A DNA stretch of 64,000 bases from a virus: the IMG/VR virus record IMGVR_UViG_3300034418_008158, positions 1 through 64,000 of that record; one strand, given 5' to 3'. Shown here piece by piece: positions 31,314 through 46,262 of this stretch (its first letter is position 1; each line of letters starts with the position of its first letter). The translations under genes and the position numbers were made by a program. Under the pieces are notes generated by a model. The model was not told the DNA's origin. It saw nothing but the letters and a program-made list of their open reading frames with translations, and searched no databases.

Positions 31314-31333
31314 AATTAGTGGGGGTTTTGAAG
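31314..31333 (-). promoter_or_regulatory. Repeated phage promoter-like motif, copy 1
   Basis: Plus strand AATTAGTGGGGGTTTTGAAG; about 25 nt upstream of the SF2 helicase ATG. Confidence 0.75.
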
Positions 31334-37539: not shown

Positions 37540-37870
37540 AAGAAAATAGCATCTAAGTGGCTTGCACATTCTCCAACGCTGCACACCCTAAAGTGCTTGG
37601 CCCTTGATTGCTAAGTTGGACAGCCTACGCCTAACATCTGTCCTGTTATCCTCTTATGATAGTCTTCACGATAGGGAAGTTATATATCACTGAGTCAAAA
37701 TATTCCTAGAAGCTGACGCTGGTTATCTACCCTCCTCACACCATGTAATCATGGATAACGTCCTTCAGAGTGGGTCAATGAAACCTTTTACGCATAGGAA
37801 TAATTCTTTTCCATCACCACCTCTCCCCAAACACTAGTTCATTTGGATCATAAAGGTGGGTCAAGACTTC
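37540..37870 (-). ncRNA. Putative structured ncRNA downstream of tmRNA
   Basis: ORF-free. Minus-strand helices CCACCT/AGGTGG, TATTCCTA/TAGGAATA, GACG..GTTATC/GATAAC..CGTC, GGACAG/CTGTCC, CCAAC/GTTGG. U-rich 3' end. Confidence 0.45.
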
Positions 37871-37877
37871 TTAATTG

Positions 37878-38381
37878 TGGAGGTGAAGGGATTTGAACCC
37901 TTGTCCAGACATAGCTGCAAAATACAGATTATACAAGCTTTTGTAGCTGTTCATGTACATTTAACTGGTAGCAATTACAATCTCAAAGAGATAGTCACTA
38001 GCACTACTGAGTTTCTTCATTATTTGATTCCTTTATAAACTCTAAGATAGGAATAGGACTAACCGAAGTTAATCTCCACCATTTACTTTTGAAAAAAGTA
38101 ACAAAACAAATTAAGAGAGTGTGACACGCCAAACAGTCACATTTATGAGGTTGATTTAGCCTAATCCTCCTCTCTAAAAAACTACGCTGCTACCAAAGAA
38201 TTAACTTTAGGAGAAACATAGATTGCAGTCAGCATATTATGCTCGTAAGCATTCTTCACCTCTGCGGTATTAATTGATTTGCCAATTAACGGTTCAGTGT
38301 ATTTTATATAAGTTAGGATAACACCATCCTTCTGCTTGTCTATAAGTTACACTCTACCCTGTCGATGCCAAGTTCACCCCC
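37878..38381 (-). ncRNA. ssrA: tmRNA
   Basis: 5' GGGGGTGAACTTGGCATCGACAGG; 3' GACAAGGGTTCAAATCCCTTCACCTCCA. Acceptor stem GGGGGTG/CACCTCC has the G3:U alanine determinant. Internal tag frame 38283-38182 ends LVAA*. Confidence 0.9.
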
Positions 38382-39385: not shown

Positions 39386-39405
39386 AAGTTTATGAATTTA
39401 GTTAG

Positions 39406-39479
39406 TGACCCTGCCAGGACTCGAACCTGGAACCTGCTCATCAGAAGTGAGCTGCTCTATCCAGTTGAGCTACAAAGCC
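39406..39479 (-). tRNA. tRNA-Arg (anticodon UCU)
   Basis: GGCTTTG-TA-GCTC AACTGGATA GAGC-A-GCTCA CTTCTGA TGAGC-AGGTT-CCAGG TTCGAGT CCTGG-CAGGGTC-A cloverleaf; CCA not encoded. Confidence 0.9.
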
Positions 39480-41968: not shown

Positions 41969-42310
41969 TTATAAATTGTCTAATAATATTATGTCTTGAA
42001 CTGAGATACTATCACCCCAAGGTATCTGATAATGTTTTGTCTGTCCTTCCTCAATACCTGGAGAAGTAATATACAGGCTATCATTATCAATATTGATAAT
42101 GTAATCCGCTTCCTGATAAATTACTGAGGGTTCAGATGTATAGTTCATACTGATGAAGAATAGTGTCCAAATAAAAGAAATGCCTAGAAGGAAAGTCCAA
42201 GAAACTTTAGTTTTATACTTATTATGTTTAAGAGTGTCAACAGCAATGATAATGTCTCCAAGAGTAACATAAATAGCAAGAAAGAAAAGAATAGTTTGAA
42301 TATAAATCAT
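41969..42310 (-). CDS. Membrane protein
   Basis: Two TM segments. Confidence 0.55.
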   Translation of the reverse strand: MIYIQTILFFLAIYVTLGDIIIAVDTLKHNKYKTKVSWTFLLGISFIWTLFFISMNYTSEPSVIYQEADYIINIDNDSLYITSPGIEEGQTKHYQIPWGDSISVQDIILLDNL

Positions 42311-42576
42311 AATTGGTTATTTTGAGGTTGATAAATTACTACTTTTTCTAGTTCAAAGAGTCTAGTCCATGCCTCTCCATTAGTGTCTTGTGCCTCTATT
42401 TCTATTTCCATTCCCATTTGGTCAACATTTGTACCAAGGAGTTTTATAGGAGACAAAAGAGGAAGATAATAATGTTCTCTAATTGCTGTAAACAATAGAA
42501 AATAAAACTCAGAAATAGGTGCATCATAGATAACCGCAATAGTTTCACCGTAAGATTTTAATATGAATCCTTTCAT
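42307..42576 (-). CDS. Hypothetical protein
   Basis: 89 aa; ATGA overlap with downstream gene. Confidence 0.55.
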   Translation of the reverse strand: MKGFILKSYGETIAVIYDAPISEFYFLLFTAIREHYYLPLLSPIKLLGTNVDQMGMEIEIEAQDTNGEAWTRLFELEKVVIYQPQNNQL

Positions 42577-42644
42577 AAAGTTTAAATTTAAAGCGTTAAA
42601 AAGAATAGCAAACTAATAATAATACCAGTTTGCTATTTATTCAA

Positions 42645-42782
42645 TTAAAAGTTACCACCGAAATTGTCATTCATATCTTGTGAATTTCTAATACCAGTAG
42701 TATTGTAATTAATCTTTGGGACAACAATTTTATTTGATGCTGTCTTTTTAATAGTTACAATAGGTTTTGCATTCTTTGCCAT
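42645..42782 (-). CDS. Small basic peptide (45 aa, not in ORF track)
   Basis: MAKNAKPIVTIKKTASNKIVVPKINYNTTGIRNSQDMNDNFGGNF; flanked by terminator-like hairpins. Confidence 0.45.
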   Translation of the reverse strand: MAKNAKPIVTIKKTASNKIVVPKINYNTTGIRNSQDMNDNFGGNF

Positions 42783-43021
42783 GTGTGGTGTTTTTAAAAG
42801 GTGAACTATAAAGATATTAAATTTATTATTATCAATCCACTAAAAAATGGGAAACATAATAGGAGACTCTCCTACCATGCTTTCCCATATCTAATAACCA
42901 ATTGTCCTTATTGTGTATTACTTAAAATAATCTGGATCGCCATCAGGTTTACCAGGACTACCTGGGCCTAAAGTAAACATTATACAAATAAGTATAAGGC
43001 CCACTAATATAAAAGCATCCA

Positions 43022-43393
43022 TTAATGAGAAATTTTTAAGTACTTACAATAAGGATTATTGGTATTTTTCGACTTGATTAGTACAAAGTATGTGCCTTTC
43101 TTCGATACTCTCACAGGCTTGCTGTCATATGTCTCTGAAGTAGGGCTACCAATCCATACAGGGTAATCATTACCTGTTTTTGGACTGTTGCATATTATGT
43201 ACAAAGAACCACCATTTGTGGCAAATACATCATAAGATGTGCCATCAATCATAATGGTTTCACTTTGATCAATACCAGTTGATACATCAAACCCACCACC
43301 TGAAGAGGTAGAAGCTTCAAACTGTACGTTCTGACTATGCAATGAAGAAGAAATACATATGAATAAAGATAGAATAGGGATTAATTTTTTCAT
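43022..43393 (-). CDS. Secreted protein
   Basis: Signal peptide MKKLIPILSLFICISSSLHS-Q (Bacteroidota-like Q after the cleavage site). Confidence 0.65.
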   Translation of the reverse strand: MKKLIPILSLFICISSSLHSQNVQFEASTSSGGGFDVSTGIDQSETIMIDGTSYDVFATNGGSLYIICNSPKTGNDYPVWIGSPTSETYDSKPVRVSKKGTYFVLIKSKNTNNPYCKYLKISH

Positions 43394-43440
43394 GGTTATT
43401 AAGTTTTACTAAAAGGTTATTAAATAATATGGTAAGATAA

Positions 43441-44679
43441 AAAGAAAGACACAAGCCATCATCAGTTAAGCATCTTACGCCTAACCTCAAGCTGTATCTA
43501 TCTCTTTGGGCCTTAGACCACTTCCAAATTAATGGCTGTTAAATATCTTAATGTGCCATTGAACTACACATTTATCCTGTGCTAGTCTGAGGTCGTTAAC
43601 CCTCAGTTACTCCCCTGGCAAGGGTGTTTACTGGATTATCATAATACAAATTGTTGTGTCACACTCAAGTTATGTGGTAATTAATCACAAAGAGCTTGTT
43701 AATATGGTATGAGCCACTGGGTTAAAAATAATGATAGTTTTATAGCTCTCAGACTAAGGGGCTAATACGACCCAAGATATTGCTATCTAGTTATTTTTAT
43801 TAAACCTTGTGTTCTCTCACTGCCTTTAGGGAGTTTGTTGGGTTTAATAAATAAAATGGACTGAGTGCTTTGTCCATTTTGTAAGCGTTAATATCAGCTT
43901 TCGCTTCATACACACACTCCCATTACTGGAAGTAGCTTACATAGTCAGATATAAAGGTTCCCACCTTACTACATTAGCTTTTATAAGATACTTGCTTTCC
44001 TACAGTCTCCCCTGGACAGGGATAAACCAACATTCCCATGCTAGTAAACCAGTAGTAATCCCGTTCTCTTCTCTCTCATAGCTTGAGGCTACTTGAGGTC
44101 ATCATATTGCAGATGAATAAGACCATTTTCAGGCTAATGTGTTGACACGTTTTTTCAGTTTCTTTTAGTTGTCTTGCATGACAATTAACAAAAAATTGGT
44201 GCAAGGTGAATAAAGAATGTCCATTGTGAAGAGTGTAGTGTCAACTTTATACCATGCTATCCGTTTGAGATAGTTTAAGTATGACACCCTTCTGCGTTCC
44301 CCCTGTCAAAGGGTACAATAAGACCATCGCTGGTCTATAACTGTTAACTATTCAAATAAGCACGATTTTCATCAGAGCTTAACGGAATATAACTGTACTT
44401 AGCTTCATTGGCGACAACCAACTACTACATAGTACTATTTAATCTTCCCTGTTCCTCTTTCGAGGTCAACTCTCCCTTGGACAAAGGAGAATACATCATA
44501 CTTAGAGCTAACCAGTTGGCCTTGCTCATACCATACAATGTGTGATTAAATACCTTTCCATCCACAACTAGTCTAAAGACTAATTGCACAAATCACTTAT
44601 CTTTATGTGATTCATCTTATACCTATCACTAGGTTTATGGTTAAGGACATGAAGGCTGCCCTAGTACAAGAGTACTCAA
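43441..44679 (-). ncRNA. Putative giant structured ncRNA (~1.24 kb)
   Basis: No ORF of 60 aa or more on either strand. Starts directly below promoter motif copy 4. Long-range helices 44524-44535/43703-43714 and 44541-44549/43681-43689; GAAA tetraloops; U-rich end. Confidence 0.6.
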
Positions 44680-44699
44680 AATTAGTGGGGGTTTTGAAG
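44680..44699 (-). promoter_or_regulatory. Repeated phage promoter-like motif, copy 4
   Basis: Exact AATTAGTGGGGGTTTTGAAG; an upstream terminator-like hairpin lies at about 44715-44751. Confidence 0.75.
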
Positions 44700-44765
44700 G
44701 TAGGTCAGATAAATAAAAAAGAGTAGCCTAATCCTAAGATTAAACTACTCTCAACTATCACATCA

Positions 44766-45170
44766 CTATTTCATATCCCTATAATACCTTATTAAGGCAT
44801 TAAGGTATTTTATTTTTTGCTTATGGATGATTTTTCTATTCCTATTTATCATGTCTTCATCAGGCAAAAAAGTAGAATTATCCAGATTGTAGTGGTAGTC
44901 CCACCATCCCCAATATAAGTATTTCATTGTTCTCTCATCACCCTGATACATAAGATGATTGTATCTTTTATGAAATAATGTAGAAGAGGGTTTGACAAGG
45001 ATATCGTCTGCTGTAAAATCCTTGTATTCTTTATACCCCTTCATACTATCCATGTACCTCCTTAAATGAATGCACAGATAGTAGTTTGCTGTTGGTTTAG
45101 CAAGTAAATCTCTTTTTAGACAAGATAATAGTAGTATTATCTTGTCTATTTGTTTCTCTTTTAGTTTCAT
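44766..45170 (-). CDS. Hypothetical protein
   Basis: 134 aa ORF. Confidence 0.6.
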   Translation of the reverse strand: MKLKEKQIDKIILLLSCLKRDLLAKPTANYYLCIHLRRYMDSMKGYKEYKDFTADDILVKPSSTLFHKRYNHLMYQGDERTMKYLYWGWWDYHYNLDNSTFLPDEDMINRNRKIIHKQKIKYLNALIRYYRDMK

Positions 45171-45317
45171 TGGATATTAGGTTTAAAGATAAAATATGCA
45201 CTAACTTGTATTCCCATTAATAGGAAAAACAAGAAAGGTTTAATATCATGCCTATAAATCATAAATGATTGGAGTGCAAAGCATCCAAAGACAATAATTA
45301 AGGCAAATATAGTAACA

Positions 45318-45512
45318 TTAAGATTTGATCTTTTCATTTTCATTAGGTTTTAATGGGTTATCAGGACAATATGTTATGGCATCTTCTAGTCTGCCTTCTA
45401 GCACACATTTAATGGCTAAGATGCAATCTAAAGTATGCTGGTCATTGTTGTCTATAAAGTGATTACTTAAAAACGTAGACAGCTTGTGTCTCTGCATATA
45501 GGATATTACCAT
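45318..45512 (-). CDS. Hypothetical protein
   Basis: 64 aa ORF. Confidence 0.45.
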   Translation of the reverse strand: MVISYMQRHKLSTFLSNHFIDNNDQHTLDCILAIKCVLEGRLEDAITYCPDNPLKPNENEKIKS

Positions 45513-45615
45513 GATTTATGTTTTAGCTATTAACAATATTAGTTGAATTCATCCTTATGAGGATTGCCTAATGAGTATATTAGGCAACCAATCATTATCA
45601 TTGTGAAGAAGACTG

Positions 45616-45861
45616 TCATTTGCAATTATTTACTTTGTGAACAATAGTGTCATACCTCCACACCTCGTATTTACAGGCACATCCATTTTGTGTACCTGTA
45701 ACTACAACTTTATATATGGGTTCAAAGAAGGCATGTTTAACTGCAACAATAGTCCCCATCAATATTATTGATAGGATTAATATGGCAATGATTAGGTTTA
45801 AACACCCATCATTTTTATCTGGATCACAGGTCTCCATGCCATTTTGGTAGGAATATTTCAT
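45616..45861 (-). CDS. Small membrane protein
   Basis: Likely start MKYSYQNG at 45861; one TM helix; Cys-containing. Confidence 0.5.
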   Translation of the reverse strand: MKYSYQNGMETCDPDKNDGCLNLIIAILILSIILMGTIVAVKHAFFEPIYKVVVTGTQNGCACKYEVWRYDTIVHKVNNCK

Positions 45862-45940
45862 AAGATATGATAGTTTAAAGGTAAATAAATAAAAAAGAAC
45901 TAAACCAAGTGCATTACACACTTGGCTTAGTATCAAGGTC

Positions 45941-46207
45941 TTAAAGGCTAAAGATATTCTCTGCGCCTTTACTTGGATCAATGTTGATTAAGCAAGAATT
46001 TGCCAAATCTGTAACACCATCCACAACAGGAACTAATACCCTTATGGGTAAAGACTCGTCAATGTTGCCTTGAACTCGGAAATTTTGGTCTCCAATGTTC
46101 ATGAACAATTTGTCTGTGGCTTTATTTCTAAGTACTTCAATTGAAGCACTTGGATAACCAATAGCAGACTTAAATTCGCTAATACTCATAAATTGACTCG
46201 TTTGCAT
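45941..46207 (-). CDS. Early protein, paralog A
   Basis: 59/88 residues identical to 47103-47372; follows promoter motif copy 5. Confidence 0.8.
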   Translation of the reverse strand: MQTSQFMSISEFKSAIGYPSASIEVLRNKATDKLFMNIGDQNFRVQGNIDESLPIRVLVPVVDGVTDLANSCLINIDPSKGAENIFSL

Positions 46208-46242: not shown

Positions 46243-46262
46243 AATTAGTGGGGGTTTTGCAG
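46243..46262 (-). promoter_or_regulatory. Repeated phage promoter-like motif, copy 5
   Basis: AATTAGTGGGGGTTTTGCAG (1 mismatch); shares flanking TACTCAA with copy 4. Confidence 0.75.

Follow-up and report, generated by a model that had tools for sequence, protein, structure and literature searches.

A probable, highly divergent GOLLD-type RNA in a gene-free region of a freshwater crAss-like phage

Introduction

GOLLD RNAs usually lie beside or around tRNA genes in phages or prophages. ROOL, another large ornate RNA, forms an 8-mer or 6-mer cage and likewise occurs in phages and prophages, near tRNA islands. To our knowledge, GOLLD is among the very few natural RNAs that build cages free of protein, and we know of no function for any GOLLD RNA. 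Cryo-EM structures are reportedly available for an env-38 14-mer (PDB 9MEE), a Streptococcus agalactiae 12-mer (9L0R), and a 10-mer of the 3' domain (9LMF).

GOLLD was described by Weinberg et al. 2009 (cited in PMC12286853) and is Rfam family RF02032. In the env-38 RNA, its two domains comprise residues 1-420 and 421-833 (10.1101/2024.12.08.627333). The Rfam model represents the conserved 3' domain and carries a gathering score of 150 bits. In the solved GOLLDs, loop L14 makes an A-minor contact between subunits (10.1101/2024.12.08.627333; PMC12990946). Self-complementary L21a/L21b kissing loops join two half-cages. P21b is absent from the S. agalactiae RNA, in whose structure the L24 tetraloop docks onto P21 of a different subunit (PMC12990946).

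Here, we analyze a gene-free stretch of ~1.24 kb (positions 43441-44679) in a freshwater crAss-like phage, within a window of 64 kb that represents the whole stretch of DNA analyzed. A sequence-only reading of this window had proposed that the region encodes a large structured RNA on the minus strand. We conclude that it probably encodes a highly divergent RNA of the GOLLD type.

Results and Discussion

The gene-free region and its transcription signals

The genome carries recognizable phage genes, including those for terminase, portal, and major head protein. Under code 11, the longest ORF in 43441-44679 has 54 aa, in agreement with the earlier statement that no ORF reaches 60 aa, and several ORFs have 37-54 aa. 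Recoding of stop codons lengthened the longest ORF to 81 aa (TAG read as Q) or 76 aa (TGA read as W). None of the seven small ORFs of the region matched a PHROG family, and a homologous protein search with the 54-aa ORF returned no relatives. The GC content is 0.35-0.39, vs ~0.30 in the flanks. We found no paralogue of the RNA elsewhere in the 64-kb window.

Directly upstream of the RNA, at 44680-44699 on the minus strand, is the promoter-like 20-mer CTTCAAAACCCCCACTAATT, which is indeed an exact copy of a repeated motif. Other exact copies are at 31314, 37499, and 40817, and a one-mismatch copy is at 46243, all on the minus strand (0 expected by chance in the 64-kb window). These remaining copies stand 25-68 nt 5' of minus-strand start codons, and the 20-mer is present in related phages as well. 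Transcription of the RNA would start between a few bases and ~25 nt below the motif. The upstream terminator that the sequence-only reading had described was also recovered, as a hairpin and T run at 44752-44719 (minus strand; 15-pair stem, 4-nt loop, then TTTTATTTAT). This terminator-like element would end the upstream gene (44766-45170) and insulate the RNA unit. At the other end, the U-rich tract previously taken as the 3' end amounts to CUUUCUUUUUAUCUU, and no terminator was called within 43441-44679.

The layout of these signals raises the question of whether the region is a long structured 5' leader for cis regulation of the downstream secreted-protein gene (43393-43022) instead of a free RNA. 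No terminator was called between the two, the gene lacks a dedicated promoter motif, and in the closest complete relative the same motif is found ~1.2 kb upstream of the homologous gene. However, that interval in the relative holds small protein genes in the same slot and no RNA, and a 1.2-kb leader with a GOLLD-like core is without precedent. The junction between RNA and gene (43303-43570) has moreover been swapped in a strain variant, X4, that kept the RNA. We consider a leader very unlikely.

A core that aligns with the GOLLD 3' domain

A focused scan of the region for known Rfam families, which had been suggested as a check, returned GOLLD (RF02032) with a score of 51.7 bits and an E value of 3.6e-12, on the minus strand alone. 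All of the model, positions 1-416 of 416, aligned to a 435-nt core spanning P14 to P27 (43858-44292, minus strand), and the E value was 3.7e-14 in a whole-genome search. At E <= 10, the same scan otherwise gave three chance-level matches (two miRNA families and one sRNA family), with no match to OLE, raiA, HEARO, group I or II introns, RNase P, or the other families of Rfam 15. ROOL was absent too from these matches, and both the sequence and the helix order of the core follow GOLLD. The earlier suggestion of a possibly new class thus fared poorly; the RNA is probably a real large RNA but unlikely to be a new class, since its core aligns end to end with the Rfam GOLLD model and the closest kind is therefore known.

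Helices P14, P15, P16, P17, and P24-P27 form in the alignment, in which ~11 of ~85 aligned pairs are noncanonical (~87% canonical). Put through the same pipeline, 38 other phage records (28 related crAss-like phages of similar composition and 10 unrelated phages) gave no RF02032 match at E <= 0.01. The score is nevertheless a third of the gathering score and below this cut-off, and in a scan of the whole 64-kb window the match was dropped by speed filters; similarity at the sequence level is therefore weak. The gathering score serves as an operational cut-off and is not in itself a biological feature. It is also conservative, as the GOLLDs of CcrBL9 (119 bits) and Bajun (104 bits) fall under it too, yet the published alignment of the family (supplement of PMC12286853) includes both.

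Several elements of the core have counterparts in GOLLD. The hairpin at the tip of P14, CUAUC-UCAAACG-GAUAG (44257-44273, minus strand), has an A-rich loop that is the counterpart of GOLLD L14 (consensus UCAAAAG). A long-range helix equivalent to P15 (43971-44140, minus strand) pairs ACAUUAGC (44140-44133) with GCUAAUGU (43978-43971) and encloses a multi-helix junction. Its 8 pairs are perfect, and thermodynamic folding alone gives it a probability of 0.05; the values for the P14 outer helix and P15 are low in general (0.05-0.13). Hairpin CUUCC-AGUAAU-GGGAG (43917-43932, minus strand), with a GUAA loop of the GNRA type, aligned to a GOLLD hairpin with consensus loop gaAAA and would, by our own mapping, be the equivalent of L24. 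At the end of the core, the hairpin equivalent to P27 is extended to 9 bp (43853-43880, minus strand; AAAAUGGAC / GUCCAUUUU, then AUUUAUUA) and keeps CUCAG in its loop. The terminator scan passes over this hairpin because its loop has 10 nt. It could nonetheless be a weak terminator or the 3' end of an RNA of ~0.83 kb, the size of a GOLLD.

We compared the core with a list of 3'-domain signatures (J13/15 AAAGCAAAAGUCU, GAAAG..CUAAU, GAGUA, GGGGAA...AUAAUCC, and UCUCAG). UCAAACG of L14, GAAAAUGGUCUUAU, GUGG..CCUUUA, and ACUCAG represent partial retention; the J13/15 box, GAGUA, and the GGGGAA...AUAAUCC hairpin are missing, the latter with AGC-GAAA-GCU in its place. A palindromic L21a/L21b kissing loop was not found in the core. 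The loop at the P21a position, GUCCA, is non-palindromic, and the second P21 hairpin is deleted, with helix names following our inferred mapping.

The 5' domain and the repeated hairpins

Upstream of the core are ~387 nt (44293-44679, minus strand) that in position and size are the equivalent of GOLLD's variable 5' “cap” domain, the terms in which the two can be compared, as no covariance model exists for the GOLLD 5' domain. This domain folds with a minimum free energy of -118.6 kcal/mol vs -92.6 +/- 5.1 for shuffled sequences (z -5.1), and its centroid structure is close to the minimum. It contains the hairpin CCUC-GAAA-GAGG at 44454-44465 (minus strand), one of two GAAA hairpins noted from the letters alone and located again here, the other at 43896-43905. 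The 5' domain also carries two of the repeated hairpins described below and the 5' arms of a long-range helix.

The minus strand of the region carries four near-identical hairpins with a CCCU-loop-GGGG plan, which occur nowhere else in the window. Copy 1, CUCCUU-UGUCCA-AGGGAG (44472-44489), was read from the sequence and is a variant of the motif. Copy 2, CCCU-UUGACA-GGGG(G) (44299-44313), is just 5' of P14. Copy 3, UCCCU-GUCCA-GGGGA (44008-44022), aligned with model positions 236-248, a GOLLD hairpin that is P21a by our own mapping. Copy 4, CCCU-UGCCA-GGGG (43612-43624), is in the 3' extension. The pattern CCCTN{3,4}CAGGGG has three matches in 64 kb, all of them in this region and on the minus strand, where 0.06 would be expected. 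A scheme in which the hairpin loops kiss complementary segments is unsupported: UGGACA complements to the loops showed no enrichment (4 found vs 1.9 expected).

A strain variant and RNA-library contigs

Variant X4 is identical to the reference over 43976-44548 (0 differences in 573 nt) and has only 11 differing positions in the 350 nt of 43571-43920. The segment 43303-43570 is replaced by 169 unrelated letters, and the neighbour genes at 43149-43302 and 45595-45776 differ by 12-18%. The conserved block extends over the upstream gene too (4 differences in 304 nt), so that recombination of a block, instead of selection specific to the RNA, may account for it.

The region is present in RNA libraries. 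Contigs from two metatranscriptome studies, four in total, all fall in 44223-44654, with none elsewhere in 42000-46000, and they extend up to 44654 and 44639, not past the promoter motif. They are low-depth 151-nt pieces from runs picked for holding this stretch, in which DNA carry-over is possible. As they are sparse, the missing cover at 43441-44222 and in the flanking genes proves nothing.

The central proposal of the sequence-only reading is supported, namely that the minus strand encodes, under a promoter motif of the phage, a non-coding RNA that is large and structured. The grounds are the absence of coding potential, the raised GC, the folding of the 5' domain, the near-identity in X4, and the RNA-library contigs. 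All of the sequence features that it had listed are present. The region might instead be spacer DNA without function, the remains of decayed genes, or several tiny protein genes in a cluster, as the ORFs of 37-54 aa and the lack of homologues to show RNA-level selection would allow. This is hard to reconcile with the raised GC, the z of -5.1, the significant covariance-model match, and a region nearly unchanged in X4 next to genes that differ by 12-18%; no ORF has a family or a homologue, and stop recoding opens nothing. We give this explanation the least credence.

The 3' extension and the clamp helix

Beyond the GOLLD model, ~290 nt (43571-43857, minus strand) form a 3' extension that matched no Rfam family and folds, for the tail as a whole, at z -2.0. 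Its segment 43676-43714 pairs with 44524-44554 in the 5' domain (both minus strand) to form a clamp helix, which encloses ~810 nt, including the whole GOLLD-like core, and leaves hairpin copy 4 outside. The two long-range helices previously described are both there: a perfect 12-bp helix (43703-43714 with 44524-44535) and an adjacent 14-nt pairing at 93% (43676-43689 with 44541-44554). The composite duplex of ~26 bp has an energy of -34.4 kcal/mol vs a best-in-shuffle mean of -28.2 +/- 3.1, and its pair probability in the ensemble of the full 1239 nt is 0.9-1.0. A perfect 12-bp helix arises anywhere in the region in 6% of dinucleotide shuffles, and between the 5' domain and the 3' flank in 0 of 100, a search space chosen post hoc; the significance of the long-range helix is moderate. 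Among the three strain SNPs in the clamp, 43706 G>A and 43708 T>C turn a G-C and a U-A pair into G-U pairs, and 43684 A>G breaks a pair, leaving an A-C mismatch. In three canonical GOLLD loci, we found no helix like it.

The last 130 nt (43441-43570, minus strand) are a variable tail or spacer before the downstream gene, replaced in X4 and probably outside the functional RNA. A pseudoknot had been proposed between this tail and the enclosed domain, and its pairing does exist (44080-44091 with 43482-43493; 12 nt, 92%). As a conserved feature we rejected it, given that its 3' arm is in the segment 43303-43570 that X4 has exchanged; its ensemble probability is 0, although the folding model cannot represent pseudoknots.

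It is uncertain whether the region encodes a single RNA of 1.24 kb, as had been supposed, with a GOLLD-equivalent part of ~0.83 kb and a tail that X4 does not conserve. There could be two or more separate RNAs, namely a GOLLD-like RNA of ~0.83 kb ending at the P27 hairpin and a U-rich run (~43841-43853), and, further downstream, a 280-400-nt structured element or leader that is independent of it, with a fortuitous clamp. Canonical GOLLDs end at P27, here AUUUAUUA comes after a P27 helix that reaches 9 bp, the RNA-library contigs are confined to the 5' part, and the 12-bp helix taken alone is found in those 6% of shuffles. The composite clamp, with its 26 bp, its energy, its probability, and its absence from 100 shuffles in the restricted space, argues for one molecule, as do the two wobble-compatible SNPs. 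Hairpin copy 4 in the tail also has the same motif as the three copies upstream, and neither a promoter motif nor a called terminator occurs between the GOLLD-like part and the 3' extension. We regard separate RNAs as possible, though on balance unlikely.

Relatives and comparison with known cage RNAs

No search found a homologue of the RNA body. A blastn search with the region against 50,697 GenBank phage records gave no match, and in 23 + 5 related crAss-like records, RF02032 and blastn searches recovered the promoter motif alone. An exact 20-mer from the core had 0 matches in IMG/VR, and stop-free frames of the RNA, used there as pseudo-proteins to scan degenerate patterns, returned nothing. 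The same frames did match one JGI metagenome locus (L096), which we discarded as chance, as it falls within a genuine ORF of 284 aa and gave no match to GOLLD. The hairpin 15-mer CCCTGTCCAGGGGAG hit 11 IMG/VR loci, and none of the 10 searched had a GOLLD match, indicating chance matches. Turning to the neighbouring genes, IMG/VR yielded no relatives for either of the two small proteins that flank the region, the upstream gene has relatives in one near-identical cluster only, and Pfam and PHROGs gave nothing useful. A protein search for RNR in genome contigs found only a phage-like contig binned as Saccharibacteria and no Flavobacteriales lead. The structure presented here is that of one sequence threaded on the GOLLD model.

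The likeness to GOLLD extends beyond the model. GOLLDs are phage-encoded, as is this RNA, and join a variable 5' domain of ~400 nt to a conserved 3' domain of ~430 nt for a total of about 700-850 nt; here, ~387 nt and the core up to the end of P27 make ~0.83 kb. This RNA keeps the A-rich L14-type loop, the GNRA loop on the hairpin equivalent to L24, and CUCAG in its final loop, and its 5' domain still has a GAAA hairpin. The canonical GOLLDs of phiCbK and Bajun adjoin tmRNA and tRNAs, and this phage has both kinds of gene in the same genome region, with tRNA-Arg 4 kb and tmRNA 5 kb downstream of the RNA. Neither is adjacent, however, and no tRNA is found inside the RNA, including its linker, or directly beside it, the nearest being those 4 kb away. 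Other differences are the score (51.7 bits vs 104-165 for three canonical phage GOLLDs), the loss of the J13/15 AAAGCAAAAGUCU box, the GGGGAA...AUAAUCC hairpin, P21b, and the palindromic kissing loop, and the gain of four CCCU/GGGG hairpins and a ~290-nt 3' extension that clamps the 5' domain. The lineage also differs, being that of a crAss-like phage of the Flavobacterium type, for which we found no published report of GOLLD; phages of the FpV4 type grow on Flavobacterium. With ROOL, the RNA has in common its large ornate form, its phage origin, and the bringing together of 5' and 3' regions, and the clamp recalls the intertwined ends of ROOL.

Divergence of this extent invites the view that the RNA belongs to a new class after all and that its likeness to the GOLLD 3' domain is convergent or a scoring artefact of AU-rich linkers and generic hairpins. 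The score far under 150, the match lost in the whole-window scan, the missing signature boxes, a clamp and repeated hairpins not seen in three canonical GOLLDs, and the lack of intermediate sequences bridging to the family all fit this view. It does not easily account for an E value of 3.6e-12 with end-to-end coverage and ~87% canonical pairs, for the lack of comparable matches in the other 38 phage records, including 28 from relatives with a similar composition, or for the two-domain size and order and the retained L14, GNRA loop, and CUCAG. We consider it improbable and favour the highly divergent GOLLD-type RNA, with reasonable though not full confidence.

Proposed architecture and significance

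The favoured GOLLD-type RNA would begin with a 5' domain of ~387 nt, followed by the 435-nt domain homologous to GOLLD P14-P27, for ~0.83 kb. It probably runs ~290 nt further, where the extension would pair back on the 5' domain through the ~26-bp clamp helix, for ~1.1 kb in all. By analogy with the solved GOLLD structures, we would expect it to assemble on its own, with no protein involved, into a cage or other symmetric multimer. Its contacts would be made by loops docking onto helices, in which the A-rich L14 and the GNRA loops (GUAA and the two GAAA) meet G-C-rich helices, and the four CCCU/GGGG hairpins are good candidates for the receptor helices.

We can also imagine a more radical history, which we hold to be doubtful. 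The RNA would be a re-engineered GOLLD descendant of ~1.1 kb, whose 3' ring domain lost the self-pairing kissing loops and gained four identical receptor hairpins, along with a 3' extension clamping the 5' cap. Its assembly would then be unlike the known 10-, 12-, and 14-mer cages, or it would be a protein-binding scaffold, and it would represent a separate branch of cage RNAs in Bacteroidota phages.

This copy is invisible both to the Rfam gathering threshold and to the speed filters of a whole-window scan, and routine annotation therefore misses part of the GOLLD family when copies are this far from consensus. In this crAss-like lake phage of the Flavobacterium type, the RNA takes up an accessory slot that holds small protein genes in the closest relative. 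The locus also amounts to a natural experiment, as the ring domain persists without the published kissing loops of the half-cages, and repeated hairpins and a clamp helix are added; the oligomeric state of this RNA would reveal which contacts a GOLLD needs in order to form a cage. Finally, the tmRNA and tRNA of this phage would fit a function linked, during infection, to the translation apparatus of the host. GOLLD recurs together with tmRNA and tRNA genes of phages, here and in phiCbK and Bajun, which is a lead to such a translation-related role.

Match to a known RNA family

The region 43441-44679, read on the minus strand, very probably encodes a real structured RNA, and its kind is already known. 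In a focused Rfam scan, the single meaningful match was GOLLD, a giant phage RNA. All 416 positions of RF02032, which represents the conserved 3′ domain, aligned to 43858-44292 (minus strand; 51.7 bits, E = 3.6e-12; per-genome E-value 3.7e-14), with about 11 of the roughly 85 aligned pairs being non-canonical. The sequence-only reading had proposed that this was possibly a new class, a suggestion this match does not bear out.

The score falls far under the Rfam gathering score of 150, and the match, found in a 1.7-kb scan and in the search of the genome record, was absent from the cmscan of the whole 64-kb window at E ≤ 0.1 owing to the stricter speed filters applied at that length. This core would thus escape routine annotation, and divergent GOLLDs are easily overlooked by long-window scans with such filters. 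Three controls support the match: the same genome-record search returned no GOLLD at E ≤ 0.01 in either 28 related phages with a comparable composition or 10 unrelated phages; three canonical phage GOLLDs scored here gave 165, 119, and 104 bits; and both of the latter, although below the cut-off, are included in the GOLLD alignment published with PMC12286853 (supplement). We consider a relationship to GOLLD likely.

Within 43858-44292, the minus-strand alignment forms the long helix P14 with an A-rich loop (UCAAACG), the 8-bp P15 that encloses the central junction (44140-44133 with 43978-43971), and a GUAA-loop hairpin (43932-43917), as well as several further hairpins, the final one retaining CUCAG.

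The 5′ domain and departures from canonical GOLLD

A 5′ domain of 387 nt separates the core from the promoter motif. It folds far better than shuffled sequences (z = −5.1), its centroid nearly equals the minimum free energy structure, and it carries a minus-strand CCUC-GAAA-GAGG hairpin. Both GAAA hairpins proposed earlier, at 44454-44465 and 43896-43905, were found. In the env-38 GOLLD, residues 1-420 form the 5′ domain, which carries a conserved GAAA loop, and 421-833 the 3′ domain (10.1101/2024.12.08.627333); the size and order seen here thus correspond to those of a GOLLD of about 0.83 kb ending at the P27 hairpin, which is lengthened to 9 bp in this RNA and followed by AUUUAUUA.

Unlike canonical GOLLD, the window RNA lacks the J13/15 box, the second P21 hairpin, and the palindromic kissing loop, and it has AGC-GAAA-GCU in place of the GGGGAA...AUAAUCC hairpin. 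It also contains four near-identical hairpins (CCCU, a UGUCCA-like loop, GGGG) at about 44489, 44313, 44022, and 43624; the repeat pattern matched three times in 64 kb, always within the RNA region, against 0.06 expected. One copy aligns at the GOLLD position that our own mapping assigns to P21, the helix that takes up L14 and the L24 tetraloop of neighboring subunits in solved GOLLDs (PMC12990946). On this basis, and by inference only, the repeats may serve as docking helices for the many GNRA and A-rich loops of the RNA.

Clamp helix, possible 3′ extension, and strain variation

The RNA seems to run on past P27. Both long-range helices of the sequence-only reading (44524-44535 with 43703-43714 and 44541-44554 with 43676-43689) held up, together forming a clamp helix of about 26 bp between 44554-44524 and 43714-43676 (−34.4 kcal/mol; pair probability 0.9-1.0 in the full-length ensemble). 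Its significance is moderate region-wide, as 12 bp was reached in 6% of shuffles and the composite exceeds the null by about 2 sd; between the 5′ domain and the 3′ flank, a search space chosen post hoc, 0 of 100 shuffles matched it. Nothing like it joins these parts in the three canonical GOLLDs. The fourth hairpin copy, beyond the clamp helix, connects the tail with the remainder of the RNA, and we regard an extended 1.1-kb form as an evenly balanced proposition.

A strain variant, X4, from another study's sequencing run is identical to the window over 43976-44548 and differs at 11 positions across 43571-43920 and at 4 of 304 over 44683-44986, while genes at 43149-43302 and 45595-45776 diverge by 12-18%. 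The RNA is about 99% identical, and the start of the adjoining gene only about 82%. Because the conserved block also takes in the upstream gene, past recombination may account for it no less than selection on the RNA. Of three X4 substitutions in the clamp helix, two keep pairing through G-U and one creates an A-C mismatch. At the RNA-gene junction (43303-43570), X4 has 169 unrelated letters instead. The last 130 nt of the interval are therefore not conserved, including the 3′ arm of the proposed pseudoknot (44080-44088 with 43485-43493), whose pairing is present in the window.

Metatranscriptome contigs from two studies all lie at 44223-44654, with none elsewhere in 42000-46000, and end on the upper side at 44654 and 44639, as would fit transcription beginning just below the promoter motif; they are weak evidence, given low depth, runs picked by this stretch, and possible DNA carry-over.

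Phage, probable promoter, and coding potential

The IMG/VR record containing the window is 74 kb and 78% complete. The terminase, portal, and major head protein belong to crAss-type PHROG families, the last with 72% identity to the Flavobacterium phage FpV4 group and 70-89% to many uncultured relatives. Sequencing runs holding the stretch come mainly from freshwater. The ribonucleotide reductase of the window phage has a counterpart with 76% identity on a 20-kb contig that was binned as 'Candidatus Saccharibacteria' (CAZNER010000035.1) and is probably a phage contig mis-binned into a MAG.

Code 11 reads the large genes normally. As proposed earlier, 43441-44679 appears gene-free: its longest ORF is 54 aa (at most 81 aa with TAG or TGA recoded), and none of its small ORFs could be assigned to a PHROG family or matched to a homologue among 5.8 billion proteins. 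GC content is 0.36-0.39 vs about 0.30 in the flanks. Directly upstream lies the minus-strand 20-mer CTTCAAAACCCCCACTAATT (44680-44699), with the expected terminator-like hairpin just above it. The 20-mer recurs on the same strand at 31314, 37499, 40817, and 46243 (none expected by chance), usually with a start codon 25-68 nt past it. Since it also occurs in related IMG/VR phages (G001, G014, and others), its earlier reading as the phage's own promoter is fair and probably correct.

Distribution and possible role

Searches for homologues of the RNA body in GenBank phages, IMG/VR, JGI metagenomes, and 28 related phages found none. G001, the closest complete relative, carries the promoter motif together with a homologue (59% identity) of the downstream gene (43022-43393), the motif being about 1.2 kb upstream of that homologue; the slot between them holds no such RNA and no Rfam match. 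Instead, it encodes minus-strand ORFs of 48, 132, and 72 aa (positions 383-1500 of G001:27467-30486). The slot is a cassette-swapping hot spot. From this distribution, we conclude that the RNA is an accessory cassette, which is what the patchy occurrence of GOLLD would predict. We found no published report of GOLLD in this phage lineage, and the window copy is unusually divergent and, apparently, extended.

GOLLD has been shown to self-assemble into 10-, 12-, and 14-mers (PMC12990946, PMC12286853). By homology, this RNA would be expected to self-assemble protein-free into a symmetric multimer, with contacts that would be partly rewired relative to GOLLD; cage formation is possible, though we lean slightly against it.

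The window phage has a tmRNA about 5 kb downstream of the GOLLD-like RNA (37875-38381, minus strand; RF00023, 67.3 bits, E = 4.8e-24; no ARAGORN call) and, as the sole tRNA found in the window, tRNA-Arg(TCT) (39405-39479, minus strand). The stretch just after the tmRNA (37540-37870) matched no Rfam family in the whole-window scan. Canonical GOLLDs of Caulobacter phage phiCbK and Brevundimonas phage Bajun adjoin (permuted) tmRNA and tRNAs. Together, these arrangements suggest a recurring GOLLD-tmRNA-tRNA association in phages and, with it, a link between GOLLD and translation.
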